A stretch of 64,000 nucleotides of DNA, taken from positions 2,252 through 66,251 of the forward strand of contig MWEH01000151.1 of NCBI GenBank assembly GCA_002070965.1, read 5' to 3'. Origin of the DNA: Firmicutes bacterium ADurb.Bin080 (lineage in GTDB: Bacteria; Bacillota; Clostridia; Christensenellales; DTU072). The stretch's first letter is position 1. Every line of letters starts with the position of its first letter. Of the stretch, positions 13,532 through 61,716 are shown one piece after another. The notes beneath the pieces were generated by a model, which made no database searches, was not told where the DNA came from, and worked only from the letters and a program-made list of their open reading frames with translations. Position numbers and translations under genes: made by a program.

Positions 13532-13706
13532 TTTGAGAATTATGTTACCAGAGAAGACGATTACACTCTTTTTTGTCTATTAAGACATATATCTTACTTT
13601 TTCAAGCAGTTCAAAATATATTTGAGAAATATGTTGTCGGAGTAAGTGAATACTCTTTTTGTCTATTAAGGCATATATCTTACTTTTTCAAACAGCTCAA
13701 AATATA
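13532..13706. repeat. Tandem direct repeat (89 + 86 nt) duplicating the 3' end and stop codon of the RimK-like gene
   Basis: Copy 1 at 13532-13620 and copy 2 at 13621-13706 align over their full length with a few substitutions and indels. Copy 2 contains the real stop (13680-13682) and the last 8 codons. Weaker similarity continues into the CDS (13707-13760). Confidence 0.85.
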
Positions 13707-14543
13707 TCTGGCATAGATTTCCGTTACCGGAACCCCAGTAATTTTTTCCATCGTTTGAGTAAGAGCGTTTGAATTTACCTCAGCAAGTACTGGACCCTTA
13801 TTACCGAAAAGTAAATCTACACCGCAATAGTCAAGCTTCAGTAACTTTGCACACTTTTCAGCGATTTTTATATACTCATTATCAGGAGAGTACTCCTCTC
13901 CTTTTCCTCCAGTGGCTATTCCACTTCTAAAATCACCTGAGTAATTTTCTCTCTTCATCCATGCGACAGCTTTTCCCCCAATAACTATTATTCTTAAATC
14001 TTTTCCTGAGCTTTCTGAAATAAAACTCTGGGCAAGATATCTGCCTCTACATGTTTCAAGCCTAGAAATGAATTCATTGTAGCTCTTGATTAGAAAAACG
14101 CCCATACCCAATGAGCTGTTATTTTCTTTTAATACAAATGGTCTTCCACATTGCTTTACTATATTTTCATAGTCATTCAATGTCGCATATGGTTCTCTAT
14201 AGACTATAGGTAGAGAGCATGTATCCGGTACAGTTACCCCCTTCCCCGAGAGTCGGATATAGGTCAACATCTTATCATCGCAAATTTCAATTGCTTCTGC
14301 TCTATTGAAAACTCTTATCCCTGCTTTCTCCAACATCCTTGCAAGCTCTATATCCTTGTCTAAAAAAATACAGAAGTCAGCATCAATCCCTAGTTCAACA
14401 TTGTTTTTAGATATCTTTGCAATTGTCAGATTGTTTCTCAGTATTTCTATAGAATGTCCCATATTTTCAAATGAGAGTTTTATAGAGTTGGCCTGCTTAT
14501 CTAAAGATAAATCCGTTTTGTTAAGTATAATTATCCCTTGCAT
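13680..14543 (-). CDS. RimK-family ATP-grasp ligase (alpha-L-glutamate ligase-like)
   Basis: 287-aa ORF. Size and ATP-grasp layout (…PFVLKENNSSLGMGVFL…, …DLRIIVIGGK…, …GVDLLF…AEVNSN…) resemble RimK/LysX ligases. Confidence 0.75.
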   Translation of the reverse strand: MQGIIILNKTDLSLDKQANSIKLSFENMGHSIEILRNNLTIAKISKNNVELGIDADFCIFLDKDIELARMLEKAGIRVFNRAEAIEICDDKMLTYIRLSGKGVTVPDTCSLPIVYREPYATLNDYENIVKQCGRPFVLKENNSSLGMGVFLIKSYNEFISRLETCRGRYLAQSFISESSGKDLRIIVIGGKAVAWMKRENYSGDFRSGIATGGKGEEYSPDNEYIKIAEKCAKLLKLDYCGVDLLFGNKGPVLAEVNSNALTQTMEKITGVPVTEIYARYILSCLKK

Positions 14544-14632: not shown

Positions 14633-14682
14633 AACATAACGTAAATATATATATAAACTATAAATTAACGATAAGGACTAAT

Positions 14683-16035: not shown

Positions 16036-16038
16036 GCA

Positions 16039-17505: not shown

Positions 17506-17610
17506 TTCAATAATTCCTCACGGATAGAAACATTACAAAGTTGAAAAGCATTTCGGGTAAAAACTTTCTTTTTGCTAAAAATAATATTCTAACACCTAAT
17601 TATAGGCAAT

Positions 17611-18390
17611 TTAATTCTGTAAATAAGGAACAAAAGCTTCCCTTCCATGCTTGCAAATTGGGCAGATAATATCGTCGGTAATTGGCCCATTATGTATATA
17701 CCCACACACTGTACAAATATATTTCTCTTCAGACTCCGAGGGGGCAGCTTTAGGCTTTTCCATTTTTTCCTCTTTCTTATAGCCTTTTAGAGGAACAAAG
17801 GCCTCTCTCCCGTGTTTACATATTGGACATATAATATCATCTGAAATTGGGCCTTTATGAATATATCCACAAATTGTACATATATATGCCTCGCCTTCTT
17901 CCTCAATCTTTTCTTGAGATGGCCTTGGCTTGATGTATTTCTGATAATATGAATATGTCAAAGGTTCATCCCCTTCCGAGAAAACCACTCTGTCTGTAGG
18001 CTGGCAAATGAATTGAGTGTGGGTTCCCATATCAACTTTACTAGACACTTTTAGGTCAAAATAGCCAATCACCCCATCCGTCGGAATCAAGCAGCCATTT
18101 TTGGCCCTTATTGCGGCTACCCCTTCATACTTATTCTCTGTTTTTCCACTTCTCATGCCAAAACCCTTAATAATATCAAAAGTTGCCTTCTCTGAAATTA
18201 TCGCACAACTTGCAATCCCAGTTTTCTCTATCATATCGTGTGTACAATTTAATTTGTTAACTGTTACCGTCAAAACCTCTGGGCTTGAGGTTTGTTGCAT
18301 TAGAGTATTTATTATGCAACCATTGTCTTTATCATTTTCATGGGCAGCTAAAACATATAATCCATAACTGATCTTAAAAAGTAAATTCAT
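17611..18390 (-). CDS. Flavin reductase-like domain fused to two tandem rubredoxin domains (high-molecular-weight rubredoxin type)
   Basis: 259-aa ORF. The N-terminal 150 aa or so look like an FMN-binding split-barrel flavin reductase. They are followed by two copies of YICTxCGYIHxGPIxDDIICPICKHGREAFVP (CxxC...CxxC). Confidence 0.8.
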   Translation of the reverse strand: MNLLFKISYGLYVLAAHENDKDNGCIINTLMQQTSSPEVLTVTVNKLNCTHDMIEKTGIASCAIISEKATFDIIKGFGMRSGKTENKYEGVAAIRAKNGCLIPTDGVIGYFDLKVSSKVDMGTHTQFICQPTDRVVFSEGDEPLTYSYYQKYIKPRPSQEKIEEEGEAYICTICGYIHKGPISDDIICPICKHGREAFVPLKGYKKEEKMEKPKAAPSESEEKYICTVCGYIHNGPITDDIICPICKHGREAFVPYLQN

Positions 18391-18480
18391 ATAGCGTCTC
18401 CTACTATTAATTATCTTCCTTATTTTATATCAACCTTCTCAAATTTTCAATACTGTATCCAACCTCGCTCCCGCTCGATA

Positions 18481-18682
18481 AACAAACAGTATTAATTATT
18501 TGATTAATTATCCATTTAACAAATAAACAGTGAAATTAATAATTCCTTCAATAATCGCTTTATATCTGATTAACGAATAAACAGAGAATTTTATAATTCT
18601 TTCAATATTCGCTTTAAATCTTATAAATGAATAAACAGTGAAATTTATACTTCTTTCAATATTCGCTCTAAATCTGAAACCG
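18481..18682. repeat. Tandem direct repeat, 54-nt unit x about 3.7, duplicating the 3' end and stop codon of the HAD hydrolase gene
   Basis: Units start at 18521, 18575 and 18629 (gaataaacag...ttcaatattcgct...), with a shortened copy at 18481-18520. The last unit contains the real stop (18645-18647) and the final 12 codons or so. Confidence 0.85.
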
Positions 18683-19304: not shown

Positions 19305-19542
19305 CTAAAAAAATTACCCTTCTAGTATAATATTTGAATATTATCATAATTATCATAATTAGAAAACTAATTAGCCCCTTTGATACTCCGATTTACATTT
19401 AAGCAAGGTATTTCTCATCTTTGATGATTTCTTCATAAAATCCTTTAGTAACTAATCTCACATATTGACTTTTCCTTTCATTTATTTTACTTATATTCCT
19501 TCTTGTTGTATGATTTATACATTCTTTTTAAGGGAGTTTTTT

Positions 19543-20793: not shown

Positions 20794-20814
20794 ACAATAG
20801 TACCTCAAGACATA

Positions 20815-20849
20815 ATTACTCCCCGGCCTTTGCTTGGGGAGTAATTTTT
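20815..20849 (+). terminator. Rho-independent terminator of guaA
   Basis: ATTACTCCCC-ggcctttgctt-GGGGAGTAAT followed by TTTTT. Confidence 0.8.
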
Positions 20850-20965
20850 AAATTATTAAAAGTTTCAGTTTTTAAAAGAAAAATATAATAATACAAGTAT
20901 ATTCGTGATAAATAAGGCTTTTTTTTATTACCTATTTGAAAAATAAGAATAACAAAAAATCAAAC

Positions 20966-21595
20966 TTATAATTTAATTGTTCTAGTTTGACAAGAGAACA
21001 TATCAACTAAAAGAACCTCTTCTCTCTCAAGAGCTCCAGCATTTGAAAGAAATTTCACCATTTGACAAACCTGTAATGCTGCAACTGTAGCAGGAATATA
21101 ACTGATAGTTTCTCTCGTAGGCTCAATTTTCCCCGAATAAAGTTTTGATAATGTCTTATCACCCGGTCTAACTACTGCAATTTGACCAAAATATGCATTT
21201 ATTGCCCCATGAATAACCGTAATTCCGCTTCGGATTGCTACTTGCTCAAGATATAGTCTTGCGTTCACATTATCTGTAGCATCAATAATGCAATCATATC
21301 CTTTGAGCAAGGGGAAATACTTCTCTTGGAAAAAATCTGGTATGGCTTCCGCATCTGAAATTCCAATTTTTCTTGTCTCTTCTGCAGCAACCTCGGCCTT
21401 ATTCTTTCCTAAAGTTAATTGGTTACAATAAAGTTGTCTGTTTATATTGCTTGAATCAAAAACATCTCCATCGAAAATTAGTATCTTTCCTATGCCTAAT
21501 CTAGAAATTAGGTTGACAATGTTGCCTCCTAATCCTCCGGCCCCTATCACAACGACTTTTTTGCTATGAAGCTTATCTAATAACTCGCTAAACAA
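20966..21595 (-). CDS. ThiF/MoeB/HesA-family E1-like adenylyltransferase (short form)
   Basis: 209-aa ORF with VVVIGAGGLGGN (nucleotide-binding loop) and D.D....SN.NRQ motifs. Confidence 0.8.
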   Translation of the reverse strand: MFSELLDKLHSKKVVVIGAGGLGGNIVNLISRLGIGKILIFDGDVFDSSNINRQLYCNQLTLGKNKAEVAAEETRKIGISDAEAIPDFFQEKYFPLLKGYDCIIDATDNVNARLYLEQVAIRSGITVIHGAINAYFGQIAVVRPGDKTLSKLYSGKIEPTRETISYIPATVAALQVCQMVKFLSNAGALEREEVLLVDMFSCQTRTIKL

Positions 21596-21628
21596 AAGTA
21601 ATCCTCTCTTTTTAATATTAAGGTTAAA

Positions 21629-21877
21629 TCATCCCCCAGATGCGGGACTCATAATAAGAACGTTGTCCCCATCTTTAAGCCTTGTTCGAAAGCGTCTCAA
21701 ATCCATTATATTTTTCCCATTAATGAGAATAATCGAGTCCTTAAGTTCTTTGTAAGAATAATATGAGTTATATTCACTCAGATTTTTTAAAAGATTATTA
21801 ATATCCGAAGCTTCGGTCTCCCAAGAAGACATTTTGTAGTTCAACCTATACAACCCGAAAAACTCAACCTTAATCAT
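21629..21877 (-). CDS. MoaD/ThiS-family ubiquitin-like sulfur-carrier protein (C-terminal Gly-Gly)
   Basis: 82-aa ORF ending ...SPASGG. Its start overlaps the AOR stop (ATGA-type overlap at 21874-21877). Confidence 0.7.
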   Translation of the reverse strand: MIKVEFFGLYRLNYKMSSWETEASDINNLLKNLSEYNSYYSYKELKDSIILINGKNIMDLRRFRTRLKDGDNVLIMSPASGG

Positions 21878-23874: not shown

Positions 23875-23939
23875 TATTCCTCCTCAAATTAAATTCAAAT
23901 TAATTTTTGGGGGCTAAAAACCGTTGCCCACCAACTTTT

Positions 23940-23968
23940 ATTATATATTAAAGGGGGTCTTATATCAA
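23940..23968 (-). promoter_or_regulatory. Promoter TTGATA-17-TATAAT upstream of the AOR operon
   Basis: On the minus strand, TTGATA (23963-23968), 17-nt spacer, TATAAT (23940-23945). The leader of about 60 nt contains the hairpin uugGUGGG...CCCCCaa. Confidence 0.45.
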
Positions 23969-24049
23969 TATGCGAAGGGAAAACTATTTGCAAAACAATC
24001 TTTGAAAAATCATTATTCAAAAAAAACTAGTCTCCGAAGAGGAACTGTT

Positions 24050-24373
24050 TTACGAATTTAAATCTGTATTTTTCATCTCTTTCAGATTCATTTGTTTCTT
24101 AGCACGCGACTCAAGTTCTTTATCAATTTCAGATAAAGGAATATCCATTTGAGCTAACATGACCATAATGTGATAAATAAGGTCTGAAGTTTCCAGAACA
24201 ATCTCTTCTTTTTTAGCGTTTTTTGCGGCAATAATCATTTCAGAGCACTCTTCCCCGCACTTTTTCAATATTTTATCTATTCCTTTTTCAAATAGATAAC
24301 AGGTGTATGAGCCTTCGCTTTTTACATTTTTTCGTTCGTTTATTATTTTTTCAAGTTTTTCTAAAGAATCCAT
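24050..24373 (-). CDS. hisE: Phosphoribosyl-ATP pyrophosphatase
   Basis: 107-aa ORF. The MazG-like helical motifs (...SYT.YLF..G.DKI.KK.GEE..E..IA...) are typical of HisE. It is the last gene of the his cluster. Confidence 0.85.
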   Translation of the reverse strand: MDSLEKLEKIINERKNVKSEGSYTCYLFEKGIDKILKKCGEECSEMIIAAKNAKKEEIVLETSDLIYHIMVMLAQMDIPLSEIDKELESRAKKQMNLKEMKNTDLNS

Positions 24374-24384
24374 ATTTACCTCTT

Positions 24385-24699
24385 TTACAATATTTTATTA
24401 AAAAAACAGGATTTATTCCCAGTATGGCAAGCAGGTCCTGTCTGAATGACCTTAATCAATAAAGTGTCATTATCGCAGTCAGCAAAAATACTTACCACTT
24501 TTTGGATATTTCCAGAAGTCTCTCCCTTGTTCCAAAGTGCTTTTCTGCTTCTGCTGAAGAACCAGGTATACCCTGTATCAAGTGTTTTTTTAAGACTTTC
24601 TTTGTTCATATATGCCAACATTAGCACCTCATTTGTCCCGTGTTCCTGAATAATTGTTGGAATCAATTCTGATTTTTCAAATAAAAAATTATAATCCAT
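24385..24699 (-). CDS. hisI: Phosphoribosyl-AMP cyclohydrolase
   Basis: 104-aa ORF with ...IPTIIQ...VLMLAYMN..., SRSR..LW.KGETSG and C.TG..SCF motifs. Confidence 0.9.
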
Positions 24700-24702
24700 A
24701 TA

Positions 24703-25419
24703 TCACCTTCCCTCCGCGATCATAATAGCTTCTTTTAAAGAAAGGGTTCCCGCATATATGCTCTTACCACAGATAGCTCCAAAAATACCCTCTTGTTTCA
24801 ATAATTTAATATCTTCTATGTCCTTAACTCCACCACTGGCAATGATTTCACATGAAGCAATGTCTTTAATTCTTTTTATCCCTTCTATATTTACTCCTTG
24901 AAGAGTACCATCCTTTGAAATATCAGTGTAAGCAATGTACTTTACTCCCATTAACATCATATCTTCAATGAAGTCGATATAGTGTAATCCACTGTCAACA
25001 TTCCAACCGGAAGTCTTTACCCTATTGTCCCTGACGTCTACTCCAACAATAACGTTATCTGGATAGTTCTTAAGAAGTTCCGCAAGAAATACTTTATCTT
25101 CCACTGCCGCAGTTCCAATTACAAGTTTATCAACGCCTGCTTTTAGGCAAGTGTCAACACGATTCATGCTTCTTATTCCCCCTCCTGTATCGATTTTTAC
25201 AGGAAATTCACAAAGCCTTTTAATTATTTCGAAATTAACAGCTTGGTTCCCCCTGGCAGCATTCAAATCTACAACGTGAATATGTTTTGCCCCTTCATTC
25301 ATAAATCTTATAGCAGTTTCAAACGGATCTTTTGCGACTTCCTCGGACAAAGAATAATCTCCCTGGTACAACCTCACACATTTTCCATCGAGTAAATCGA
25401 TTGCAGGATATATTATCAT
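24703..25419 (-). CDS. hisA: ProFAR isomerase (1-(5-phosphoribosyl)-5-[(5-phosphoribosylamino)methylideneamino]imidazole-4-carboxamide isomerase)
   Basis: 238-aa ORF. MIIYPAIDLLDGKCVRLYQGDY and the late GGV/GK.IY motifs match HisA rather than HisF. Confidence 0.85.
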   Translation of the reverse strand: MIIYPAIDLLDGKCVRLYQGDYSLSEEVAKDPFETAIRFMNEGAKHIHVVDLNAARGNQAVNFEIIKRLCEFPVKIDTGGGIRSMNRVDTCLKAGVDKLVIGTAAVEDKVFLAELLKNYPDNVIVGVDVRDNRVKTSGWNVDSGLHYIDFIEDMMLMGVKYIAYTDISKDGTLQGVNIEGIKRIKDIASCEIIASGGVKDIEDIKLLKQEGIFGAICGKSIYAGTLSLKEAIMIAEGR

Positions 25420-25470
25420 TTAATCCTCCTATATAACAAAAACCTATCTCAATGTCTGAAACGAAATATA

Positions 25471-26049
25471 CTATATCATGCCTTTGGATGAAGGAATTCC
25501 GGAACTAGAAATCTTTACAGCCTCTTTCAAACATCTGGCACAAGCCTTGAATAACGCCTCAATTTTATGATGATCGTTATTCCCATTCAAACTCTTTATA
25601 TGTAATGTTATTTCTGCATTGTTGGCAAGAGCACGGAAAAACTCTGGAGTAGCATCTGTTTCGTAGTCCCCGCAGTTCTTATACAAAAAATCACCTTTAA
25701 AATCACAGAAACCCCTACCGGAAATATCTATGGCACAAAAAGCCAAGGATTCATCCATTGGTATAAAGCAATCTGAAAACCTGTTAATTCCTTTTCTATC
25801 TCCAAGGGCAACTTTTATTGCCTTACCCAATACAATTCCAATATCTTCAACGGTGTGGTGACAATCAACGCTTAAATCTCCTTTTACTTCCAAGAAAATA
25901 TCAATCCCTGAGTGGGTTGCAAAAGAGTTGACCATGTGATCGAAAAAACCTATTCCCGTTTGGCTTTTCACCCTTCCAGTTCCATCCAAATTAACTATGA
26001 TGGAAATATCTGTTTCACCTGTTTTTCGCTCAATTCTTGCTTCTCTCAT
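25471..26049 (-). CDS. hisB: Imidazoleglycerol-phosphate dehydratase (monofunctional)
   Basis: 192-aa ORF with R.T.ET.I...L.LDG, GFFDHM and HH..E motifs. Its start overlaps the hisC stop by 4 nt. Confidence 0.9.
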   Translation of the reverse strand: MREARIERKTGETDISIIVNLDGTGRVKSQTGIGFFDHMVNSFATHSGIDIFLEVKGDLSVDCHHTVEDIGIVLGKAIKVALGDRKGINRFSDCFIPMDESLAFCAIDISGRGFCDFKGDFLYKNCGDYETDATPEFFRALANNAEITLHIKSLNGNNDHHKIEALFKACARCLKEAVKISSSGIPSSKGMI

Positions 26050-27107
26050 TTCTCACCTCTATTTTTGAAAATATTATCTAAAGAAGAAAACAAAGCAGAT
26101 TGTTCCTCCTCATTTCCTGCAGAAATCCTTAAAGTATTATTATTGAAATATCTTATTGCTATTCCATCGCTTAACAACTTATCATATATCTCTTTTGCTC
26201 TTATAGTTGATACGTAAATAAAATTGCCTCCTGAAGGAAATACTTTTATTTCATCAGTATATCGCTGTAACCCAGCATAAAGATTGTCCCTCATTCTAAT
26301 AATTTTTTCTATTCTTTGTTTGTTTTCTTCTGAATGAGAAAGAAGTATAGAACCAAATTTTTGGGTTACTGAATTAATATTATAAGGAGCCTTAACTTTC
26401 TTCATTGTGGAAATTAACTCTCGATTTGATACTGCAAATCCTAATCTGATAGATGCTGCGGCAAAAGCCTTGCTCATAGTTCTTAAAACAATTACATTGG
26501 AAAAATCCTTAGCAATATTTAAAATTGATTGGTCAGAAAAATCCATGTACGCCTCATCGACAACGAACAAAATATTCGGACACTTTTGAAGTAATTTGAT
26601 TATATTATCTCTTGAAATAACCTGACCAGTTGGGTTGCATGGATTAGAAAATATTACAATCTTTGGCTTTGATTCTTCAATTGCCTGAATTAGTGCATAT
26701 ACATCAATCGGTTCATCATAAGGATTGTTAACTGAAATTACTTCTGCCCTTCGTAAATCAGAATAAAAACGATACATGGAAAAGTCTGGAGCTAACGTCA
26801 ACACTTTATCTCCGTCCTTCAAAAAAACTTGTATGATAAGATTTATTAACTCATCTGAACCGTTCCCAGCTATAACTGAATCAACATCGATGTCTTTGGA
26901 TCTTGCAAATCTGTAACACACTTCTTTTGAATATGGGTCAGGGTATCTGTTAAAGTCTATATCTTTCAAGGAAGATTCAAACTCTTTCAGAATATTATCG
27001 GGTATAGAAAAAAAAGACTCATTCGCATCTAGTCTGACTTTAAACTCCCCTTCTATTGGTTTATAGGGAATCATATCCAATAACCTTTTTTCTATTTCAT
27101 ACTTCAC
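26046..27107 (-). CDS. hisC: Histidinol-phosphate aminotransferase
   Basis: 353-aa class-II aminotransferase with LDANES, NPCNPTG and SKAF (PLP lysine) motifs, in his cluster context. Confidence 0.9.
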   Translation of the reverse strand: MKYEIEKRLLDMIPYKPIEGEFKVRLDANESFFSIPDNILKEFESSLKDIDFNRYPDPYSKEVCYRFARSKDIDVDSVIAGNGSDELINLIIQVFLKDGDKVLTLAPDFSMYRFYSDLRRAEVISVNNPYDEPIDVYALIQAIEESKPKIVIFSNPCNPTGQVISRDNIIKLLQKCPNILFVVDEAYMDFSDQSILNIAKDFSNVIVLRTMSKAFAAASIRLGFAVSNRELISTMKKVKAPYNINSVTQKFGSILLSHSEENKQRIEKIIRMRDNLYAGLQRYTDEIKVFPSGGNFIYVSTIRAKEIYDKLLSDGIAIRYFNNNTLRISAGNEEEQSALFSSLDNIFKNRGEK

Positions 27108-27158
27108 GAAACAACCTCATTGCTAATGTTTTTGTAATACTATTTTAACTGATTTCTT

Positions 27159-28433
27159 CTATTCAAGTCTAACTCTAATTGAATTAGCGTGGCCGGTTAG
27201 ACCTTCCCTCTCGGCAAATATTATAACACTCTTGGAGTCCTCAATAAATTTTGATTTAGAGTAAGAAATATACTGCATTTTTTTTGTAAAGCTTTCTACT
27301 GATAGGGGAGAAAAAAATCTTGCTGAACCACCTGTAGGAAGAACGTGATTACTTCCCGCAATATAATCCCCTATTGGCTCAGGGGTATATTCTCCAAGGA
27401 AGACTGATCCTGCATTATAAATTCTTTCCAATATAACTTCTGGCTTCTCAACCATAATTTCAAGATGCTCTGGGGAAATGTAATTTGCAATTTCTATACT
27501 CTCTTCAATGTCTTTGGTGATAATAATCACTCCATATTCCTCTAAAGCCTTGCTTGTTATCTCTGCTCTTTCAAGGCGAGATAGTTGATTTTTTAGTTCT
27601 TCTAATGTTCTCTTCGCAACTGCCTCTGAATCTGTTACCAAAATGGCTGAAGCAAGTTTATCGTGTTCTGCCTGAGAAATTAAATCAGCGGCAATGAACC
27701 TTTCCCTTCCTTTGTTGTCAGCAATTATCGTAATCTCAGAAGGTCCAGCAATCATATCTATATCACAAGTTCCATAAACCAATTTTTTGGCAGTAGCTAC
27801 ATATATATTCCCAGGCCCAACAATTTTATCAACCTTTCTTATGGTTTCAGTTCCATATGCTAAAGCCGCTATCCCGTGGGCCCCTCCAACCGTATAAAGA
27901 GAATTGACTCCAGCGATATATGCTGCGGCAAGTATATCCAAATTTACTCCATTTTTTGATGGAGGAGTAATTATAACTATCTCCTCTACTCCCGCAATTT
28001 TCGCGGGGATTGCATTCATTAAAACAGATGAAGGATATGAAGCAGTACCTCCGGGTACATATAACCCCACTCTTTTCAGGGGACGAATAATTTGCCCCAA
28101 TTCACTTCCCTCGTCAGTTATTTTTATCCCTTTTTGTATCTGCTCGTTGTGAAAAGCGCTTATCCTTTCTGTTGCTTTTATCAGAACATCTTTAAACTCC
28201 TCATCCAGAGAAGTAAAGGCTTCTTTAAAATCCTTACCAGTATACTCTTTTATTTCCTCAGTTCCATCAAACTTAAGTGCGTACCCTTTTAGCGCTTTAT
28301 CCTTATTCTTTCGCACATTTTCAAGTATTTCCCTAACAACGTTCTCAACATTCTTATTGTTGGTTAAAACCTTTTCTCTTTGCATATCGAGAAAATCAAA
28401 GATACTCTCTTTAGAGGTATTAATTATCTTCAT
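27159..28433 (-). CDS. hisD: Histidinol dehydrogenase
   Basis: 424-aa ORF with YVPGG.A.YPSSVLM, SQAEHD and GDY..G.NHVLPT motifs. Confidence 0.92.
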   Translation of the reverse strand: MKIINTSKESIFDFLDMQREKVLTNNKNVENVVREILENVRKNKDKALKGYALKFDGTEEIKEYTGKDFKEAFTSLDEEFKDVLIKATERISAFHNEQIQKGIKITDEGSELGQIIRPLKRVGLYVPGGTASYPSSVLMNAIPAKIAGVEEIVIITPPSKNGVNLDILAAAYIAGVNSLYTVGGAHGIAALAYGTETIRKVDKIVGPGNIYVATAKKLVYGTCDIDMIAGPSEITIIADNKGRERFIAADLISQAEHDKLASAILVTDSEAVAKRTLEELKNQLSRLERAEITSKALEEYGVIIITKDIEESIEIANYISPEHLEIMVEKPEVILERIYNAGSVFLGEYTPEPIGDYIAGSNHVLPTGGSARFFSPLSVESFTKKMQYISYSKSKFIEDSKSVIIFAEREGLTGHANSIRVRLE

Positions 28434-28529
28434 TTCGTTTTCCTTTTACTTTATTCTCTATTTTTCCGTATTTACATACTAATTGCTGGCACTAACCAGT
28501 GTTACATTCCCATGATACTATACAATACA

Positions 28530-29159
28530 CTATATATTCACTGATATCTTCCTGCAAAAACTAAGTATTTCTTCCTTTTTAGTTTTTAAACTTACTGGGT
28601 TTGATATCAGACGAGCTGAAATCTCGGCCACAGTTTCTATTACTTCAAGCCCATTTTCTCTTAGAGTCGAACCTGTTTCGACAATATCCACAATACCATC
28701 AGCAAGATTTAAAATTGGAGCAAGCTCAACTGACCCTTCGATTTTGACAATTTCAATCGGATAATCCTTAGTTTCAAAATACTCCTTAGTCACTTCTGGA
28801 TATTTTGTGGCAACAGTTTTTAAACTATACCCTGAATAAAACTTTTTTCCCTTCAATACCGCAAGAGCAAATCTACACTTTCCGAAAGGAAGAGCGGCTA
28901 TCTCGTTAACAGGTCTTTTCATTTCCATAAGAGTATCCTTTCCGACCACTCCTATATCAGACACTCCTCTTTCGACATATGTTACGACATCGCAGGCCTT
29001 TGCAAAAATAAAGCGATACACACCATCCACTTCAACCACTAACTTTCTCCCTTTGTCCACTAAGCAACCACATGCTATTCCAGCTTTCTCTAAGAGTTCA
29101 ACTGTTTTTTCCTCTAATCTTCCCTTTGTAAGTGCAATATTTAGCATTTTTTTCTCCAT
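28530..29159 (-). CDS. hisG: ATP phosphoribosyltransferase, short (HisZ-dependent) form
   Basis: 209-aa ORF. The more likely start is the second ATG at 29147 (GGAG RBS). It has L.IALTKGRL and IVETGSTL motifs and no C-terminal regulatory domain. Confidence 0.9.
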   Translation of the reverse strand: MEKKMLNIALTKGRLEEKTVELLEKAGIACGCLVDKGRKLVVEVDGVYRFIFAKACDVVTYVERGVSDIGVVGKDTLMEMKRPVNEIAALPFGKCRFALAVLKGKKFYSGYSLKTVATKYPEVTKEYFETKDYPIEIVKIEGSVELAPILNLADGIVDIVETGSTLRENGLEVIETVAEISARLISNPVSLKTKKEEILSFCRKISVNI

Positions 29160-29225
29160 TAATTCTTTTTGTTCAAGATATAAATTACATTATATATAAT
29201 AATATTCGTCTATATCCGTTATTAA

Positions 29226-30413
29226 CTATATGTCATTCTCCTTAATTTTCCCATCCTTATCTATTGTTATGACTATTTTTGCTTTTATCGCATTAGCCCA
29301 TTTTATTGTATCCTCTTCCGAATCGCATAATGAGACAACACATCTATATCCTCTTTCCTTTAATTCAACGAATATTGGATCTTCATAATTAACTTGAGCA
29401 CTAGAAGAGGAAAAAACCACTGCCTTTTTTCTATCTAAGTCGTCTATTTCCATTTTCGATAAAATTTCCAGAGCTTCGTTGAAATTAATTGCAAATCCGA
29501 TTGCAGGGATATTCAAGCCATAGTCACCATATAGAGAATCATATCTGCCCCCAGACATTACTTCTGTACCTACTCCATCCACAAAACATCTAAAAACCAT
29601 ACCTGTATAATATTGATAATCATTTAGTATTGATAAATCAAACAAAATATTATCCTGAAGTCCCTCGTTCATCAAACCCTGGTAAAGTTTTTCCAGCTCC
29701 AGTACTGCGGAAAAAGCTTGATTGTCTTTTAATATATTTTTTGCCTGAGACAATATCTCTTTCCCGCCAAAGAGACGTGCTATTTCTTTTAGAATTTTAC
29801 CTTTTTCTCCTAATTTTGAAGCAATTAAGTCAACCTCCGGGAAGTTTTTCTTAGAGATGGCACTTTTTGCAGCCTCTTTGAACTGTCCAAACGAGTCTAG
29901 AACTGAACCAATTATTCCCATATGTCCTATCTCGATAAAAAAATCGTCCCCGAATAATTCCTTCATGCTTTTTATCCCAAGAATCAGAATTTCTAAGTCA
30001 GATTTATAGCCAGTTCCTCCGATAAGTTCAATACCCATCTGAATGATTTCATCTGATTTCCGATTAAAACTCAAATTTCTCTTAAATACCGGTTGAGAAT
30101 AATATAATTTAATAGGAAGCACAAAATCTTTTAGTCTTGATGCAAAGAGTCTTGCGATTGGTTTTGTAGAGTCTGGTCTCATTGTTATGAGTCTTCCGCT
30201 ACCGTCAGTAAGTGTATAAAGCTCGTTCTGAGAAACTCTACCTACCCCTTCTGAAAATACATCATAAAACTCAAGACTGGTTGTCATTACTTCATCGTAT
30301 CCATAATTTTCAAATAAGTTTCTAACCCGGTTTTCGGCATTTTTTCTAATTTTGCACTCTTTAAAAAGATAGTCCATTGTGCCTTCGGGAGTAATTTTAT
30401 CATATCTTCTCAT
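29226..30413 (-). CDS. hisZ: ATP phosphoribosyltransferase regulatory subunit (HisRS paralogue)
   Basis: 395-aa class-II aaRS-like ORF without an anticodon-binding domain. It lies directly upstream of the short hisG. Confidence 0.85.
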   Translation of the reverse strand: MRRYDKITPEGTMDYLFKECKIRKNAENRVRNLFENYGYDEVMTTSLEFYDVFSEGVGRVSQNELYTLTDGSGRLITMRPDSTKPIARLFASRLKDFVLPIKLYYSQPVFKRNLSFNRKSDEIIQMGIELIGGTGYKSDLEILILGIKSMKELFGDDFFIEIGHMGIIGSVLDSFGQFKEAAKSAISKKNFPEVDLIASKLGEKGKILKEIARLFGGKEILSQAKNILKDNQAFSAVLELEKLYQGLMNEGLQDNILFDLSILNDYQYYTGMVFRCFVDGVGTEVMSGGRYDSLYGDYGLNIPAIGFAINFNEALEILSKMEIDDLDRKKAVVFSSSSAQVNYEDPIFVELKERGYRCVVSLCDSEEDTIKWANAIKAKIVITIDKDGKIKENDI

Positions 30414-30452
30414 CTTCTCTCCTTTATCGCATTAGCGTGCTAAAGTGCTTTG

Positions 30453-30481
30453 ATATTAACATGTATAATCGATTGTGTCAA
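30453..30481 (-). promoter_or_regulatory. Promoter TTGACA-17-TAATAT for the his operon
   Basis: On the minus strand, TTGACA (30476-30481), 17-nt spacer, TAATAT (30453-30458). The leader is only about 40 nt, which leaves no room for a T-box or attenuator. Confidence 0.55.
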
Positions 30482-30482
30482 T

Positions 30483-30515
30483 AAAAAATCAAGGATTTAG
30501 GCCCTTGACTTTTTT
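30483..30515 (-). terminator. Rho-independent terminator downstream of the ADP-ribosylglycohydrolase gene and its repeats
   Basis: aaaaaag-TCAAGG-gcctaaat-CCTTGA-tttttt on the minus strand (6-bp stem, U6). Confidence 0.6.
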
Positions 30516-30528
30516 CTTAACCAAATAT

Positions 30529-30759
30529 ATTGAAATTATATCAGTAAACTCCTGTCAATTCTTTCTGTTTTTAAACTTCTTTACTACTTCTTTTTCTTCC
30601 AAAGATTGAACTTATATCAACAAACTACTGTCAATTCTTTCTGTTTTTAAAACTTCTTTACCACTTCTTTTTCTTCCCAAGATTGAGCTTATATCAACAA
30701 ACTCCTGTCAATTCTTTCTGTTTTTTTAAACTGCTGTACTACTTCTCTTTCTTCCGAAG
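30529..30759. repeat. Tandem direct repeat (76 + 77 + 78 nt) made of three copies of the last 23 codons or so, plus stop, of the ADP-ribosylglycohydrolase gene
   Basis: Copies at 30529-30604, 30605-30681 and 30682-30759 align end to end with a handful of mismatches and 1-nt indels. Only the third is in frame with the CDS (real stop at 30689-30691). The second hits a premature stop after an indel. Confidence 0.9.
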
Positions 30760-31516
30760 AAAGAAAACTGAGAGCTTTAGAAACAATTCTTTGATTAATT
30801 TCTGGATAGAAGTAGAAAGCTTCTGCAATAGATCCAGTAATGGCTGCTAATGTGTCGCTGTCACCCCCCAATGATATGGCAGTTTGTATTGCATCTATAA
30901 AGCTTTTAGACTCTAAAAAAGCCCTGATAGCCTGAGGCACTGTACCTTGACAAGTTACATCATAAGTATAACTCTTCCTGATATCATCTATTCTAAAACT
31001 CATTGGATAGTAGTTATAGTGAACGTACTTTAGAATATACTCTTTACTTTTTCCTTGTCGACAAAGCAAAATACAGGCGGCTACTGCCTCTGCCCCTTTT
31101 ATTCCCTCGGGATGGTTATGGGTTACCTCAGTTACTTTCCTAGATAATTCTTTTAGTTGGTCCATATTCGAAGCAAACCATCCTACTGGACTAATTCTCA
31201 TTGCAGCACCATTCCCATAACTTTCGTAAGGCTCCGGATTTTCACTCTCAAGCCATTGTTTGAATGCTTGCCCGTAATCGCCGTTTGGGTTTTTACATCC
31301 AAAATACCTCATCCAATATACAGTTTTTTCTGATAGATCACTATAATCTTCCTTTGAATCCAGTAGAGCCTTGGCTACTGCAACAGTCATTATACTATCA
31401 TCAGTTGCGTAACTACCCTCTTTGAACCAAACAAAATCCTTTTCTTTGATATTGTTATATTCATATAAAGAACCTACTACATCCCCAATAATTGCTCCAA
31501 TCATATATTCCTCCAA
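30689..31516 (-). CDS. ADP-ribosylglycohydrolase family protein
   Basis: 275-aa ORF. GAIIGDVVGS..E near the N-terminus, a TDDS motif and GGDSDT near the C-terminus are typical of the DraG/ARH family. Confidence 0.8.
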   Translation of the reverse strand: MEEYMIGAIIGDVVGSLYEYNNIKEKDFVWFKEGSYATDDSIMTVAVAKALLDSKEDYSDLSEKTVYWMRYFGCKNPNGDYGQAFKQWLESENPEPYESYGNGAAMRISPVGWFASNMDQLKELSRKVTEVTHNHPEGIKGAEAVAACILLCRQGKSKEYILKYVHYNYYPMSFRIDDIRKSYTYDVTCQGTVPQAIRAFLESKSFIDAIQTAISLGGDSDTLAAITGSIAEAFYFYPEINQRIVSKALSFLSSEEREVVQQFKKTERIDRSLLI

Positions 31517-31591
31517 TATACTTTTGTTAATTATACATCTTTTTATAAGCTCTTTAAAGGATAAAAGAAACTGTTAACAAATAGTATAATG

Positions 31592-32119
31592 CTACGCTAT
31601 CGAAACCGTTAAAGAATTTAGTGTAATTGAGTTAGGAGTATTTAAGGTTACCCCAGACATTACTAAATAAACATATCCATCGTTTGCTAAAGAAAATGAA
31701 GAAAGGTTTAATGTTACATTTGCGGTTCTGTTAGTTCTAAAAGTAATATTGCTAGATGTTCTAATTAACGTCCCCGAAGAGTTATATAGAGAAAATCTTG
31801 CAGTACTATTTTTATTCTTTACTGTACTTCTATAGTTTATGGTAATTGAGAGAGAATTAACAGTGTTCCCAGTCAAGTTGTATACGTTAACACGATTAGT
31901 TCCTGCTAAGTATGCTTGTAGAGATACTGCTATCAACTGTGACTCCGAATTTTCTTCAGGGACAAATACATACGAATATCCTGCAGGGGGAGTTACCACT
32001 TTAAAATTGTATTGTTCCTCATAAGCATATTTTGCCCCAGTATAAGGTACAGTCAGTAAAAAAGTCATAAGTAAAACAATCGTGAGGATAATTAAGTTTT
32101 TCTTCAAAGTCATTTTCAT
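31592..32119 (-). CDS. Exported protein, divergent TasA/camelysin-like paralogue (putative minor fibre subunit)
   Basis: 175-aa ORF with an N-terminal TM/signal segment followed by TGAKYAYEE, related to the (A/G)-K-(F/Y)-(T/A) motif of the two upstream paralogues. It is Asn/Ser/Thr-rich with beta-strand-like composition. Its start overlaps the previous stop by 4 nt. Confidence 0.55.
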   Translation of the reverse strand: MKMTLKKNLIILTIVLLMTFLLTVPYTGAKYAYEEQYNFKVVTPPAGYSYVFVPEENSESQLIAVSLQAYLAGTNRVNVYNLTGNTVNSLSITINYRSTVKNKNSTARFSLYNSSGTLIRTSSNITFRTNRTANVTLNLSSFSLANDGYVYLVMSGVTLNTPNSITLNSLTVSIA

Positions 32120-37266: not shown

Positions 37267-37941
37267 TTATCTTAAGGTTTTTAGATAAGTCTTTCTTTCT
37301 TCACTTATTCTGAAGCTATCCACTGCCTTTTGTATAGTCTTTTTTTGCACAGATTTCGGTAACTTTCTTGATTCAATATATGGCAGTGTTTCCTCATATT
37401 TGTGGACTAAGGCATAGCTCAAAAACCAAGCGAGCCCCATATCAACATAATACTCCCCTGTATCGGCTTCCAACGCAATCTTAATAATTTCCGGGGAAAA
37501 ATTATCCTCCAAGAAAAACCTCATCAACATATTCAAGGCAAATCTTGAAACCCACGTACTTGCCCTAATCCACTCTTTTACTTTTTCAAGTAATTTTTCG
37601 GGATTCTTTGCAAAAACCTCCGGGGATAAGGTATCACAAACTGCCCAATTGTCAATATATGGGAAAAATCTTTCACATCCCTCTACCGCCCTATCAAAAT
37701 TATCTTTTTCCTGAGACAAAAAAGCAGCATGGAGAATATTCTCCTCGTAGTATTTATGGGGCAGATCATTCAAAAAATCCTTTGCATAGTCAGAATGAAT
37801 ATACTGCTTTACAATACTTCTTATTCCATTAGCCCTTATCCCAATAAAATTGTCAATATTTACTGTGGGCACGAGTTTCGAAATGAACAATTTATATTTA
37901 TCATCCTTTAATTCAAGCAATTTATTAAGGATTTCATTCAT
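37267..37941 (-). CDS. DNA alkylation repair protein (AlkD/AlkC-like HEAT-repeat family)
   Basis: The start is set at ATG 37941 (AGGAGG RBS 6 nt upstream) rather than the track start at 37974. It is a helical-repeat protein with a ...IRANGIRSIVKQ... and a WAVCD motif. Confidence 0.65.
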   Translation of the reverse strand: MNEILNKLLELKDDKYKLFISKLVPTVNIDNFIGIRANGIRSIVKQYIHSDYAKDFLNDLPHKYYEENILHAAFLSQEKDNFDRAVEGCERFFPYIDNWAVCDTLSPEVFAKNPEKLLEKVKEWIRASTWVSRFALNMLMRFFLEDNFSPEIIKIALEADTGEYYVDMGLAWFLSYALVHKYEETLPYIESRKLPKSVQKKTIQKAVDSFRISEERKTYLKTLR

Positions 37942-37984
37942 TGTTTTCCTCCTGAGCAAAAAAATATCTTTCATCCACTAAGTG

Positions 37985-38075
37985 TCAATGGAATTATACT
38001 ATGATTATTAACTTGTAAATACAAGAAATATCCTTTATCAACATGGAATAATTCTAAGATTATTAACTTGTAAAA
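37985..38075. repeat. Two imperfect direct repeats of about 35 nt (period about 53) in a divergent promoter region
   Basis: tcaATGGAATtATaCTAtGATTATTAACTTGTAAA (from 37985) matches tcaacATGGAATaATtCTAaGATTATTAACTTGTAAA (from 38038). Confidence 0.7.
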
Positions 38076-38194: not shown

Positions 38195-39445
38195 ATGAAA
38201 ATTAATAATGAACTTAAACAACAGGCAGTTGACTACTCAATGGATTCGATTAAACAAATCTGCGAAACCATAGGTCCAAGGGAGTCGGGGATGCCCGCCG
38301 AACTAAAATGTCAAGAATGGATAAAAAAGGAACTCGAAGACAAAAAATGGGTTGATTCTGCAGAAATAGAGCCCTTTAAAATGGCGAGATACGGGCTTCT
38401 TTCTTTTGGCCCAGTAATAGGCACACTAATGATGATTGCGGCAATTTTTCAAGTAATTGCATACTTTATCCCATCAAGTGGATTAGTTCTTGCTGCTAAC
38501 ATAATAACGATATCTTTTTCTATTTTGTCTTTTATAATCGGAGTTCTGCAATTTCTTTTTTACAAACAGTTTTTAGATGTTTTTCTTCCGAAACTTGAGT
38601 CACATAACCTTTATGGAAAAATAAAACCCGAAGGAGAAATGAAAAGACGAGTTGTCATCGGAGGACACTGCGATTCTGCTTATGAATTTACTATCATGAA
38701 AATTCACCAGAATGTAATGGTTGCCTCAATAGCAATTAATATCATTTTTGTCCTTGTTGGAATTGTTATGGCCGCTATTAGTCTAGGAAGTCTTGCTAAA
38801 GAGATTCCACTATGGAGTATGATAATTTTCGCAGTTTCTGCAGTATTATATATCACTTTCTTTCTTCTTTTCGATTTCACAACTGTTGTACCTGGTGCAA
38901 ATGACAACCTTACAGGTACTTTTGTTGCAGTATCTGTTGCGAAGTGTCTAAAAGAAAGTGGAGTTAAACTACAGAACACTCAAGTAGAAATTCTTCTAAC
39001 CGGGTCTGAGGAGGCTGGCCTTCGCGGAGCAAACGCTTGGTCGAAAAAATACAAGCCCGTATTTGATGCTGAAGGAGTGGAAACTGTATTTATTGCTTTT
39101 GACAGTATGAGAGACTTTGACTGGATGACAATTTATCATAAAGATATGAGTGGTATAGTAACTAACTCCCCAAGAGCGGTAAAATTACTTGATAAAGCCG
39201 GGGAGCGATTGGGGTTAAAATTACCGCATGGCGTAGTCCCTGCAGGTGCTTCCGATGCAGCAGCTGTCTCTAAAAACGGTCTTCATGCTGTATGTGTCGC
39301 AGCTCAAAACCCACACGGAGCCCCCTATTACCATAATACTAGAGATACTGCCGACAATATGGATCCGAAAACCTTCGCCCTCGGGCTTGATATAGCTTTA
39401 TCAGCTATTGAAGTCTTTGATGAGGAAGGACTTCCTGAAGTATAA
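38195..39445 (+). CDS. Membrane-embedded M28-family metallopeptidase
   Basis: 416-aa ORF with GGHCDS, NDNLTG and SEEAGLRGA motifs (M28 zinc ligands). Four hydrophobic helices are inserted in the middle. Confidence 0.75.
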   Translation: MKINNELKQQAVDYSMDSIKQICETIGPRESGMPAELKCQEWIKKELEDKKWVDSAEIEPFKMARYGLLSFGPVIGTLMMIAAIFQVIAYFIPSSGLVLAANIITISFSILSFIIGVLQFLFYKQFLDVFLPKLESHNLYGKIKPEGEMKRRVVIGGHCDSAYEFTIMKIHQNVMVASIAINIIFVLVGIVMAAISLGSLAKEIPLWSMIIFAVSAVLYITFFLLFDFTTVVPGANDNLTGTFVAVSVAKCLKESGVKLQNTQVEILLTGSEEAGLRGANAWSKKYKPVFDAEGVETVFIAFDSMRDFDWMTIYHKDMSGIVTNSPRAVKLLDKAGERLGLKLPHGVVPAGASDAAAVSKNGLHAVCVAAQNPHGAPYYHNTRDTADNMDPKTFALGLDIALSAIEVFDEEGLPEV

Positions 39446-44098: not shown

Positions 44099-44178
44099 TA
44101 CTACTTTATCTATTCTTTTAAGAAAACGGGATAATTGATACTTTTTTTAACTATTTATTAAACGAAAAAGGAGAATCC

Positions 44179-45896: not shown

Positions 45897-46742
45897 ATGA
45901 GTAGATTTGTAAAATCAATTATAATTGGACAAAACACTATCGATGGAGCAGGAGTTAAACTAAAGCGGATATTGAACAATAAAACCGCTATTGAATTTGA
46001 CCCATTTTTGATGTTGGATGTTTTCGATTCAAAAGATCCGTACGAATATATCAAAGGTTTTCCATGGCACCCCCACAGAGGGATAGAAACTATAACTTAT
46101 CTAATAACCGGGGAACTCGAACATGGAGACAGCCTGGGTAATAAAGGGAAGATTTTCTCTGGTTCTTGCCAATGGATGACTGCTGGTTCGGGTATTCTTC
46201 ATTGGGAAATGCCCCAACCTTCGGAACACTTTATGGGAATTCAACTATGGCTGAATCTTCCTAGAAAGGATAAATATGCTGAGCCAAAATACTTCGACAT
46301 AAAAAGTGATAGTATCCCCGAACTTAAAACCATATCCTCCTCTGTAAAGATAATATCCGGGAGTTATAAAGGCATTTCAGGCCCCGCTTTTGGAGACTAT
46401 GTGAAACTAGTCTTTTTGGATATAAGTCTGGGGCCCGAAACCACTTGGGATTTTGATTTAGATTCAGACGATACCTGCTTTTTATACATTATTGATGGGG
46501 ATATATGTTTAGGAAAAAACGTACTATCGAGATATGAAAGGGGTAGAGTTCTCCTTTTTAGCCAGGGGCCAAATCTTGAAGTTTCATCTTCTAAGTCGGG
46601 AGCAAGGTTTTTACTGTTTTCAGCAAAACCCACTAATGAACCCATTGCTTGGGGTGGGCCAATAGTAATGAACTCCAAGGAAGAACTTAACGCTGCATTT
46701 GAAGAATTAGATTTAGGGACATTTATCAAACATCAAAAATGA
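45897..46742 (+). CDS. Pirin-family (bicupin) protein
   Basis: 281-aa ORF with HPHRG.ETITY...G...H.D..G motifs. It starts 1 nt after the nitroreductase stop. Confidence 0.85.
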   Translation: MSRFVKSIIIGQNTIDGAGVKLKRILNNKTAIEFDPFLMLDVFDSKDPYEYIKGFPWHPHRGIETITYLITGELEHGDSLGNKGKIFSGSCQWMTAGSGILHWEMPQPSEHFMGIQLWLNLPRKDKYAEPKYFDIKSDSIPELKTISSSVKIISGSYKGISGPAFGDYVKLVFLDISLGPETTWDFDLDSDDTCFLYIIDGDICLGKNVLSRYERGRVLLFSQGPNLEVSSSKSGARFLLFSAKPTNEPIAWGGPIVMNSKEELNAAFEELDLGTFIKHQK

Positions 46743-46833
46743 AAGTTTAACCCTATCTGGTAGGTAATGTATTGCCTTTTTATGCTATTGAAAATTTAAA
46801 TCTATCTGGTCTATAATGTATTACTTTTTTGTG

Positions 46834-46848
46834 TTATAATTATAATAA
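46834..46848. promoter_or_regulatory. PerR/Fur-type box-like palindrome overlapping an extended -10 promoter (TGtTATAAT) of dfx-rub
   Basis: TTATAATTATAATAA differs at one position from the 7-1-7 consensus TTATAATnATTATAA. TG at 46832-46833 and TATAAT at 46835-46840. In AT-rich DNA a chance match is possible. Confidence 0.35.
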
Positions 46849-58874: not shown

Positions 58875-58954
58875 TTTTCTCTCCCATGTGGTGTTTAATA
58901 TATTAATTACTCTAAAACTATTTTCTATTTTCCTAAACTAACCCTTCTTGAGTA

Positions 58955-59066
58955 CTTATTCTCTGTATCGGATGGTATTAATAATCTCGTAGATATTTCG
59001 TTTTTTAGCACTTATTCTCTGTATCGGATGCTATTAATTATCTCGTATATATTTAATTTATTATTA
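58955..59066. repeat. Tandem direct repeat, 56-nt unit x 2, abutting the aroA stop codon
   Basis: Units at 58955-59010 and 59011-59066 share the first 44 nt or so (cttattctctgtatcggatgNtattaatNatctcgtaNatattt) with 3 mismatches. The second unit ends on the aroA stop (59064-59066). Confidence 0.8.
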
Positions 59067-61547: not shown

Positions 61548-61716
61548 TCTTTTTCCACTAATAACCCATTCATTTAACTGATCTTTACCTTAGGTAATTA
61601 GTTTTTCCCAATTTTATTAACTGGTTCGTTTTTACTCACTAATCTTTTTTTTACTTTAGATACTTAGTTATTCCCCAATGTGATTAAACTGGTTCGTATT
61701 TACTCACTAATCTTTT
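61548..61716. repeat. Tandem direct repeat, 66-nt unit x about 2.5, duplicating the 3' end and stop codon of tyrA
   Basis: Units start at about 61584 and about 61650 (tttacYttagRtaMttagtt.ttcccaat.t.attaaactggttcgtWtttactcactaatctttt), with a partial copy at 61548-61583. The second unit carries the real stop (61700-61702) and the last 5 codons or so. Confidence 0.8.

Follow-up and report, generated by a model that had tools for sequence, protein, structure and literature searches.

What does it mean that the end of a bacterial gene, stop codon included, should stand three times in succession on the chromosome? The question is raised by a stretch of 64,000 nucleotides from Firmicutes bacterium ADurb.Bin080 (hereafter the window; contig MWEH01000151.1 of GenBank assembly GCA_002070965.1, positions 2,252 to 66,251), in which a gene for an ADP-ribosylglycohydrolase (ARH) is followed by two further copies of its own terminus. 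The initial annotation, made from the sequence alone, took the most upstream copy for the native one, listed similar gene ends elsewhere in the window, and saw behind them either a raised frequency of short tandem duplication, with selection as a filter, or a function of repeated modules in the 3' untranslated region (UTR). The array was compared here with the corresponding loci of related genomes and with all similar arrays of the source genome (G000), the metagenome-assembled genome (MAG) of an uncultured member of the Clostridia from a digester, with 202 contigs, 2.65 Mb, 36% GC and 92.6% completeness. In our analysis, the arrays are very probably short tandem duplications filtered by purifying selection, that is, a mutational signature and no new genetic device, and they are without function of their own.

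Tandem Repeats Finder (TRF) placed the ARH array at 30529-30760 of the window, with a period of 77 nt, 3.0 copies, 89% matches and a score of 360, and a direct-repeat search gave start-to-start spacings of 76/77 and 77/78 nt. The units of 76 to 78 nt, which comprise the last 23 codons plus the stop, lie head to tail and are 86 to 94% alike in pairwise comparison (Table 1). The ARH protein itself ends in ...SSEEREVVQQFKKTERIDRSLLI, with its stop codon at 30689-30691, while copy 2 has acquired a 1-nt insertion that leads to an early stop and, on the printed sequence as in the initial annotation, reads SWEEKEVVKKF before that stop. Copies 2 and 3 have derived changes in common, and copy 3 is closer to copy 2 than to copy 1, indicating that the array grew in two steps, the second of them from the downstream copy. 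Both extra copies sit between the live stop and an intact terminator, the end of the array lying ~15 nt before the terminator hairpin. The short flank past copy 3, which bears an imperfect likeness to the start of the unit, is probably the original downstream sequence that gave the junction homology.

Comparison with relatives revealed which of the copies is ancestral. In the closest genome, that of a sister species (G001; MAG: Clostridia bacterium STF1_234) whose ARH shares 91% amino-acid identity with that of the source genome, the gene order is kept, and a single ARH end, ...RIDRSLLI, is directly followed by the same terminator and hisZ promoter. This C-terminus takes the forms RIDRSLLI, RINRSYLI and RINRSFLI in three congeners, the latter two being more distant; thus, copy 1 is native and the extra copies are derived, and TRF, the repeat spacings and the single copy in the sister species all agree with the view of a triplicated ARH terminus whose most upstream copy is the original. 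The comparison of orthologous loci that the initial annotation had recommended therefore showed the arrays to be lineage specific, as the sister species is without duplication at five array sites of the window (at the ARH, HAD, RimK, aroA and tyrA genes). It has, moreover, a 55-nt duplication (two copies) of its own across the stop of a 488-aa gene, at which the source genome has a single copy. In a further genome of the genus (G003, ~61% identity), the stop-spanning layout was seen in 4 of the 6 large arrays examined. The process has therefore acted independently and repeatedly across the genus.

To place these loci in the whole genome, a near-tandem detector (ungapped matches of at least 30 nt at 80% identity or more, with a spacing of 25 to 300) was applied to the 2.65-Mb assembly, in which it found 128 loci, compared with 0 in block-shuffled sequence; TRF at a period of at least 25 reported 108 arrays. 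The array units measured 30 to 180 nt, with a median of ~70 nt. The suspicion of more arrays than expected was thus well founded, also for the window itself, in which 4 loci span a stop where the genome average would predict 1.09 (P = 0.025). Genes were called with an ORF-plus-codon-score caller (2139 genes, 87.7% coding), and the loci were set against a position-shuffled null. Arrays that span a stop codon numbered 42, against 9.8 ± 3.0 expected and a maximum of 21 in 2000 shuffles, so that the enrichment at stops for which a genome-wide scan had been proposed is real; those spanning a start numbered 7 (10.4 expected), those in intergenic DNA 49 (9.6 expected) and those internal to genes 24 (92.9 expected). 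The preponderance of stops over starts (42:7) is highly significant (binomial P = 3.6e-7). The period was divisible by 3 in all 24 internal arrays, while the periods of the stop-spanning arrays fell into the three residue classes modulo 3 as 11/17/14, without frame preference. Among the stop-spanning arrays found by TRF, the part within the gene never exceeded one unit and ranged from ~5% to 100% of the period. When arrays were collapsed to one unit and the observed unit lengths dropped at random, survival relative to purely intergenic positions was estimated at 1.62 across stops, 0.26 across starts and 0.05 inside genes, which corresponds to a 4-fold depletion of start-spanning and a 20-fold depletion of internal arrays. 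Of the even distribution that the initial annotation had set against its own proposal, the part concerning spacers is thus nearly what was found, stop-spanning density being 1.6 times the intergenic one, whereas internal and start-spanning arrays are clearly depleted.

A simple sequence of events would produce this distribution. Slipped-strand or template-switch errors of replication between very short homologies would create the first duplication, and once two copies are present, misalignment between them would add more, as copy 3 of the ARH array came from copy 2. The mutational input is probably roughly uniform along the chromosome. As the counts show, duplications inside genes are removed completely when out of frame and mostly when in frame, those spanning a start are for the most part lost, and a duplication with one breakpoint in a gene is harmless only when the stop is part of it, as the protein is then encoded in full by the first copy and the 3' UTR is simply lengthened. 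The survivors accumulate across stops and in spacers and afterwards decay as neutral DNA. Of the two explanations first offered, short tandem duplication filtered by selection thus gains support from the scarce and strictly in-frame internal arrays, the depletion at starts, the lineage-specific occurrence of the arrays and a density about 5 to 10 times that of other families of the order. As to the starts, selection could act because an upstream partial copy would provide a decoy ribosome-binding site, start and ORF that extends into or overlaps the real start. No more than 3 to 4 of the 24 internal arrays are situated 75 nt or less from a called start; thus, the asymmetry between stops and starts stands despite possible hidden in-frame start duplications.

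The same asymmetry, together with the 1.62-fold density of stop-spanning over intergenic arrays per available position (P = 0.03) and the close approach of the ARH array to its terminator hairpin, could alternatively speak for a mutational hotspot at gene 3' ends, where stalled RNA polymerase, R-loops, conflicts between replication and transcription, or terminator hairpins favouring template switching would give rise to duplications; the association with stops would then have a partly mechanistic origin. We consider such a hotspot improbable, as it does not account for the 49 purely intergenic arrays, which are found anywhere along co-directional spacers and are evenly spread in them, nor for the 13 arrays in divergent promoter spacers, where the density per kb is highest. 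Moreover, the varying share of the first unit that lies within the gene leaves no anchor point, and no terminator-like hairpin is present in or after 28 of the 42 stop-spanning arrays, and 33 of the 42 are in co-directional spacers. The window has an example in the divergent spacer at 37988-38074, which shows that the process is not tied to 3' ends. Considering the promoter-side arrays and an excess over intergenic DNA of only 1.6-fold, which we attribute to regulatory constraint in spacers, the stop codon is a harmless place for a duplication rather than a mechanistic hotspot.

Purifying selection acting on random duplications is also in line with the units themselves. All-against-all BLAST of the 128 units (E ≤ 1e-3) revealed no stop-spanning unit that matches any other unit, in agreement with the earlier statement that the units share no sequence and form no dispersed family; the 9 related pairs were protein repeats or members of one small intergenic family. 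Dispersed repeat families of the REP/BIME, MIRU or BOX kind were therefore rejected, no stop-spanning unit being among these pairs. The small dispersed intergenic family, with a unit of ~88 nt, forms tandem arrays on contigs C182 (645-1127, 1616-1739 and 3851-3972), C120 (2635-2990 and from 3077) and C64 (490-814) and is the sole non-coding unit family common to several loci in the source genome. Across the 128 loci, the identity of adjacent copies was spread fairly evenly from 80 to 99%, with only 2 loci at 99% or above, suggesting slow accumulation and decay of arrays rather than fast turnover. Downstream copies carry frameshifts and early stops, and mismatches between genic and downstream copies are symmetric, with A in the downstream copy in 85 and in the genic copy in 79 of 248 mismatches; this symmetric spectrum led us to reject mutagenesis of the kind directed by diversity-generating retroelements (DGRs). 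The A content of the arrays (37.4%, compared with 36.0% in all 3' spacers) and their composition are those of ordinary spacers. Inside the array, no terminator-like hairpin with a T-run was found in 38 of the 42 stop-spanning arrays; a terminator follows the array in 10 of the 42, the ARH array among them. Duplication of a terminator as the purpose of the arrays was rejected accordingly, terminator-like sites being present in only 4 of the 42.

The second explanation of the initial annotation, namely that repeated 3' UTR modules serve mRNA stability, insulation against 3' exonucleases, termination or translational coupling, or the binding of a factor, was examined against the same data. Two metatranscriptome contigs overlap the ARH array: X27 (30522-30827) comprises the 3' end of the ARH gene and the three copies as far as the terminator, and X25 (30073-30626) connects hisZ, by way of the terminator, with copies 3 and 2; with a depth of 3 to 6, no strand information and possible DNA carry-over, these contigs weakly suggest that the ARH array lies within a transcript and is probably transcribed. 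The tyrA array is likewise situated inside the aro operon transcript, and the arrays are fixed and identical across the seven metagenomes examined, as might be expected of functional elements. Against this stand the absence of all five compared window arrays from the sister species, which has a different one, and the lack of any sequence common to the units. Moreover, the RNA of the ARH array and terminator folds no better than shuffled sequences (z = +0.38), hairpins of the terminator type are missing from the great majority of arrays, the copies diverge like neutral DNA, indels included, and the host genes are unrelated housekeeping enzymes. Functional modules of this kind are thus unsupported and very unlikely.

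Even less credible is an origin by target-healing insertion cassettes or serial site-specific integration, in which each arrival would restore the gene end and push the old one downstream. Some islands integrate into gene 3' ends, and gene ends stacked downstream of a live end would look alike. However, such a mechanism needs a shared module, and no stop-spanning unit matches another; the ARH array has no structure beyond that of shuffles, 38 of 42 arrays are without a hairpin with a T-run, and the copies abut with short microhomology and no foreign DNA between them. Furthermore, copy 1 of the ARH array is ancestral, as in the sister species, and copies 2 and 3 are derived, so that the new DNA lies downstream and not upstream, and like arrays occur in spacers without any gene end.

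The junctions are better described by tandem duplication: young arrays are clean head-to-tail duplications, and the 14 clean two-copy arrays that could be scored without gaps showed junction microhomologies of 0, 0, 1, 1, 1, 1, 1, 2, 4, 6, 7, 13, 14 and 18 nt. Microhomology of at least 1 nt was thus present in 12 of the 14 (25% expected by chance) and of at least 4 nt in 6 of the 14 (0.4% expected).

Since the source genome is a MAG of 202 contigs, the unit sizes (30 to 130 nt) fall within the k-mer range of assemblers, and the evidence base consists of short-read assemblies alone, the arrays might be suspected of being assembly artefacts, either strain variants joined in series or false duplications of k-mer size. 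The sister MAG indeed contains two suspicious perfect repeats: on contig C39 of G001 (L016 8300-8653 and 13545-13898), two pairs of 127-nt direct repeats, 100% identical, are spaced by exactly 227 nt. These have the appearance of assembler artefacts at k = 127 and do not resemble the diverged arrays of the source genome. For the latter, an artefact is highly improbable. The copies differ by 6 to 20% plus indels, which assemblers cannot invent, and their strong dependence on reading frame and gene boundaries is biological. In addition, the same three-copy ARH array, with 0 to 1 differences over 701 nt and no gaps, was present in independently assembled Logan contigs of seven metagenomes, each from a different study (2016 to 2025; digesters, bioreactors, sludge and wastewater), one of the seven possibly being the MAG's own source sample. 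The region 12000-31900 in metagenome assemblies X4, X5, X6 and X19 showed 4 to 10 single-nucleotide polymorphisms per 19.9 kb and no indel in any array, so that the 13.5-kb and 18.5-kb arrays are likewise reproduced. From 13 to 31 kb of the window, none of the three arrays varied in copy number among the metagenome consensus contigs compared (X1, X4, X10 and X13 for the ARH array; X4, X5, X6 and X19 for the 13.5-kb and 18.5-kb arrays). The species population is near-clonal across these studies, which points to a sweep in the recent past or to an effective population size that is very low.

Given that duplications of this kind are common in the source genome, we asked how widespread they are in the order. 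With the same repeat-search settings on samples of 140 to 200 kb, clear head-to-tail arrays, counted by eye, numbered ~15 per 200 kb in G003 of the same genus, ~5 per 140 kb in G023 of the same family, ~2 to 4 per 200 kb in G028 and G033 and 0 per 200 kb in G026 and G031, the last four genomes belonging to other families; the 128 loci of the source genome correspond to ~9.7 per 200 kb. Array density is therefore about 5 to 10 times that of four other families of the order and is a trait of the genus and part of its family. Candidates for this high density are faster formation, slower deletion or drift in a near-clonal population. Several replication and repair genes were considered. Full-length PolC was not found in any of the 25 genomes of the family or in five other families of the order, whereas a PolC of 1400 aa is encoded in eleven other genomes of the order; the PolC-less genomes instead have an ORF of ~510 to 540 aa that matches TIGR01405 at positions ~180 to 360 only (G000:C92:63429-63935, with equivalents in G001 to G024, G031, G034, G036, G039 and G040). 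PolC loss as the cause was rejected as not sufficient, because PolC-less G031 had 0 arrays in 200 kb; PolC-positive G026 had none either. Loss of MutS1, of the Pol I 5'-nuclease domain, of RecJ or of XseA was also rejected, all being present in the genus. The XseA (exonuclease VII large subunit) of G000, G001 and G002, encoded by ORFs of 378 to 455 aa, matches only model positions 1-295 of 389, while G003, which is rich in repeats, and G004 show a full-length match. It is possible, though doubtful, that a heritable change in replication or lagging-strand processing in the genus and part of the PolC-less family raises the formation of duplications or lowers their loss roughly 5 to 10 fold; if so, the pile-up at stop codons and the uniform age spectrum would be a neutral read-out of that change, and the lineage a natural experiment on microhomology-mediated duplication in bacteria. 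A purely demographic cause, in which drift at low effective population size fixes slightly deleterious insertions, is at least as likely.

Several points weigh against reading the arrays as selectively filtered duplications. The 1.6-fold excess of stop-spanning over intergenic arrays (P = 0.03) has a mild mutational bias at 3' ends as a further candidate cause beside the regulatory constraint to which we attribute it, and the account of the 4-fold deficit at starts by selection is argued rather than measured. Start positions are approximate, as they come from our own gene caller, whereas stops are exact. None of the seven assemblies showed copy-number polymorphism, in a population that is near-clonal and in consensus contigs that hide rare variants; the ongoing formation of arrays is thus deduced from differences between species and from the spread of copy identities. 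Junction microhomology was scorable in the above 14 arrays only, the older arrays being unscorable, and the comparison of densities draws on counts by eye in limited samples. Finally, none of the candidate losses (PolC, MutS, Pol I flap nuclease, RecJ or XseA) accounts for the high density.

Among known systems, microhomology-mediated tandem duplications (MTDs) resemble the present arrays most in mechanism. First shown in Schizosaccharomyces pombe (PMC8639346), MTDs have recently been shown to form de novo in viruses as well as in bacteria, archaea and fungi, to be mostly neutral in their evolution and to be depleted from coding regions (PNAS 2026, PMC13167724; bioRxiv 10.64898/2026.02.28.708716). 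Shared features are the head-to-tail duplication of a local single-copy segment with a unit of tens of bases, junction microhomology well above chance, later growth to three or more copies, scarcity in coding sequence owing to purifying selection, and a single copy at the orthologous sites of a close relative, here G001, as expected for a derived state. Nevertheless, stop-spanning arrays as the main surviving class that touches genes are not described in the MTD papers, and the terms 'stop codon' and 'intergenic' are absent from the main text of PMC13167724 and of bioRxiv 10.64898/2026.02.28.708716. The present arrays are moreover old (80 to 99% identity) and fixed, whereas MTDs are subclonal and reversible; their density is high in a lineage-specific manner; and the yeast link to Rad27/FEN has no obvious counterpart here, where the Pol I 5'-nuclease domain is present.

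The Borg elements of Methanoperedens, with perfect, young, A-rich repeats and in-frame-only units inside ORFs (PLoS Biol 2023, PMC9879509), are similar in having many locus-specific, mutually unrelated tandem arrays per genome that are absent from related genomes and flanked by partial repeats, with units divisible by 3 inside ORFs and not in intergenic DNA, and with the first unit often within a gene end. They differ in that Borg repeats are perfect and vary within populations, whereas the present copies are 1 to 20% diverged (2 of 128 loci at 99% or above), show no copy-number variation and contain 37% A, compared with 36% in ordinary spacers; in addition, the host here is a bacterial chromosome and not an archaeal extrachromosomal element. 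The minisatellites used as variable-number tandem repeats (VNTRs) in multilocus VNTR analysis (MLVA), and the MIRU of mycobacteria, likewise consist of tandem units of 30 to 100 nt, mostly in spacers and sometimes overlapping gene ends, but VNTRs are defined by copy-number variation between strains, which was not seen in this near-clonal population, and MIRU form a dispersed sequence family, unlike the mutually unrelated units described here. In DGRs, the variable and template repeats (VR/TR) also place a repeated gene 3' end nearby with substitutions between copies; here, however, the mismatches are not adenine specific, dozens of unrelated housekeeping genes are concerned, and the arrays are built of strictly head-to-tail copies, in which the stop codon and non-coding bases are repeated as well. 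Our literature searches revealed no earlier account of stop-spanning duplications on a genome-wide scale in bacteria; the papers on Borgs and MTDs come closest.

The phenomenon is thus an instance of a known process that is unusually frequent in one lineage, an ordinary cause of a striking pattern. For annotation, this means that the short ORFs and "pseudo C-termini" that follow genes in this clade are duplication debris and should not be taken for genes or regulatory modules, and that units whose length is a multiple of 3 will give rise to spurious repetitive ORFs. The counts per class provide a natural measure of where insertions of ~70 nt are tolerated in a compact bacterial genome, with no out-of-frame survivors inside genes. 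The repeat-richness of the genus is the sole part with real potential for novelty, and the genus could serve to study what determines how fast microhomology-mediated duplications form in bacteria or how long they persist, a question for which the published genetic handle (Rad27/FEN) comes from yeast.

Table 1. Positions of the arrays and neighbouring features in the window (XseA: contig C92 of the source genome)
Feature	Position	Strand	Basis or remark
ADP-ribosylglycohydrolase gene, 275 aa	30689..31516	-	ORF; Pfam PF03747 ADP_ribosyl_GH, E=1.6e-38
Array copy 1, live end of the ARH gene (last 72 nt)	30689-30760	-	ORF
Array copy 2, 77 nt, decayed gene end	30612..30688	-	absent in sister species G001
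Array copy 3, ~76 nt	30535..30611	-	94% identical to copy 2, ~86% to copy 1
Flank past copy 3 (TTCAATATATTTGG...), imperfect likeness to unit start	30521..30534	-	register print of the locus
Hairpin with A-run and T-run flanks, predicted bidirectional intrinsic terminator	30489..30508	.	same hairpin in G001
hisZ promoter-like site, TTGACA, 17 nt, TG-TAATAT	30453..30481	-	same motif in G001; left intact by the array
hisZ	29226..30413		beyond the promoter-like site
Array across the stop (13680-82) of a RimK-like ATP-grasp gene, 1.6 units of 86 nt	13570..13710	-	single copy in G001
Array across the stop (18645-47) of a HAD hydrolase gene, 3 units of 54 nt	18509..18677	-	TRF; single copy in G001
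Array across the stop (61700-02) of tyrA (prephenate dehydrogenase) in the aro operon, 2 units of 68 nt	61584..61716	-	TRF
56-nt unit x2 in the spacer downstream of aroA	58945..59056	-	begins ~8 nt past the stop (59064-66), stop not included
Array whose start coincides with the TGA stop of a pirin gene, 2 units of 49 nt, 79% identical	46740..46837	+	TRF
55-nt unit x2, 91% identical, divergent 5'/5' spacer (promoter region)	37988..38074	.	between 37267..37974(-) and 38195..39445(+)
Two in-frame rubredoxin-like modules (PF21349 x2), C-terminus of flavin reductase	17611..17890, within 17611-18390	-	both in G001
T-box leader RF00230, 114 bits	6039-6264	-	Rfam
XseA of G000	C92:4816-5688		C-terminal part divergent or replaced

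The remaining arrays of the window (Table 1) largely agree with the list in the initial annotation. Its three gene-end duplications at 13532-13706, 18481-18682 and 61548-61716 do span stop codons. The probable case at 58955-59066 is a real 56-nt duplication, but one that lies wholly past the aroA stop; in the sister species, the aroA spacer is ~80 nt shorter and free of duplication. The in-frame case at 17611-17890 proved to be an in-frame duplication indeed, though of a protein domain and, as both rubredoxin-like modules occur in the sister species, older than the species split. The miniature case at 44089-44142 was dropped, being merely a 14-nt direct repeat 39 nt apart, for which a rough estimate gives ~0.3 chance matches per 64 kb. 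Two arrays absent from that list were added, one at the pirin gene (46740-46837) and one in the divergent spacer (37988-38074). In an Rfam scan of the window, the sole family above threshold was the T-box leader. The tyrA-end array takes up most of the spacer to the next gene of the aro operon; the corresponding spacer in the sister species is of similar length and unrelated sequence, with no recognisable second tyrA end, so that, as judged from these two sequences, the length of this spacer appears to be conserved and its content not.

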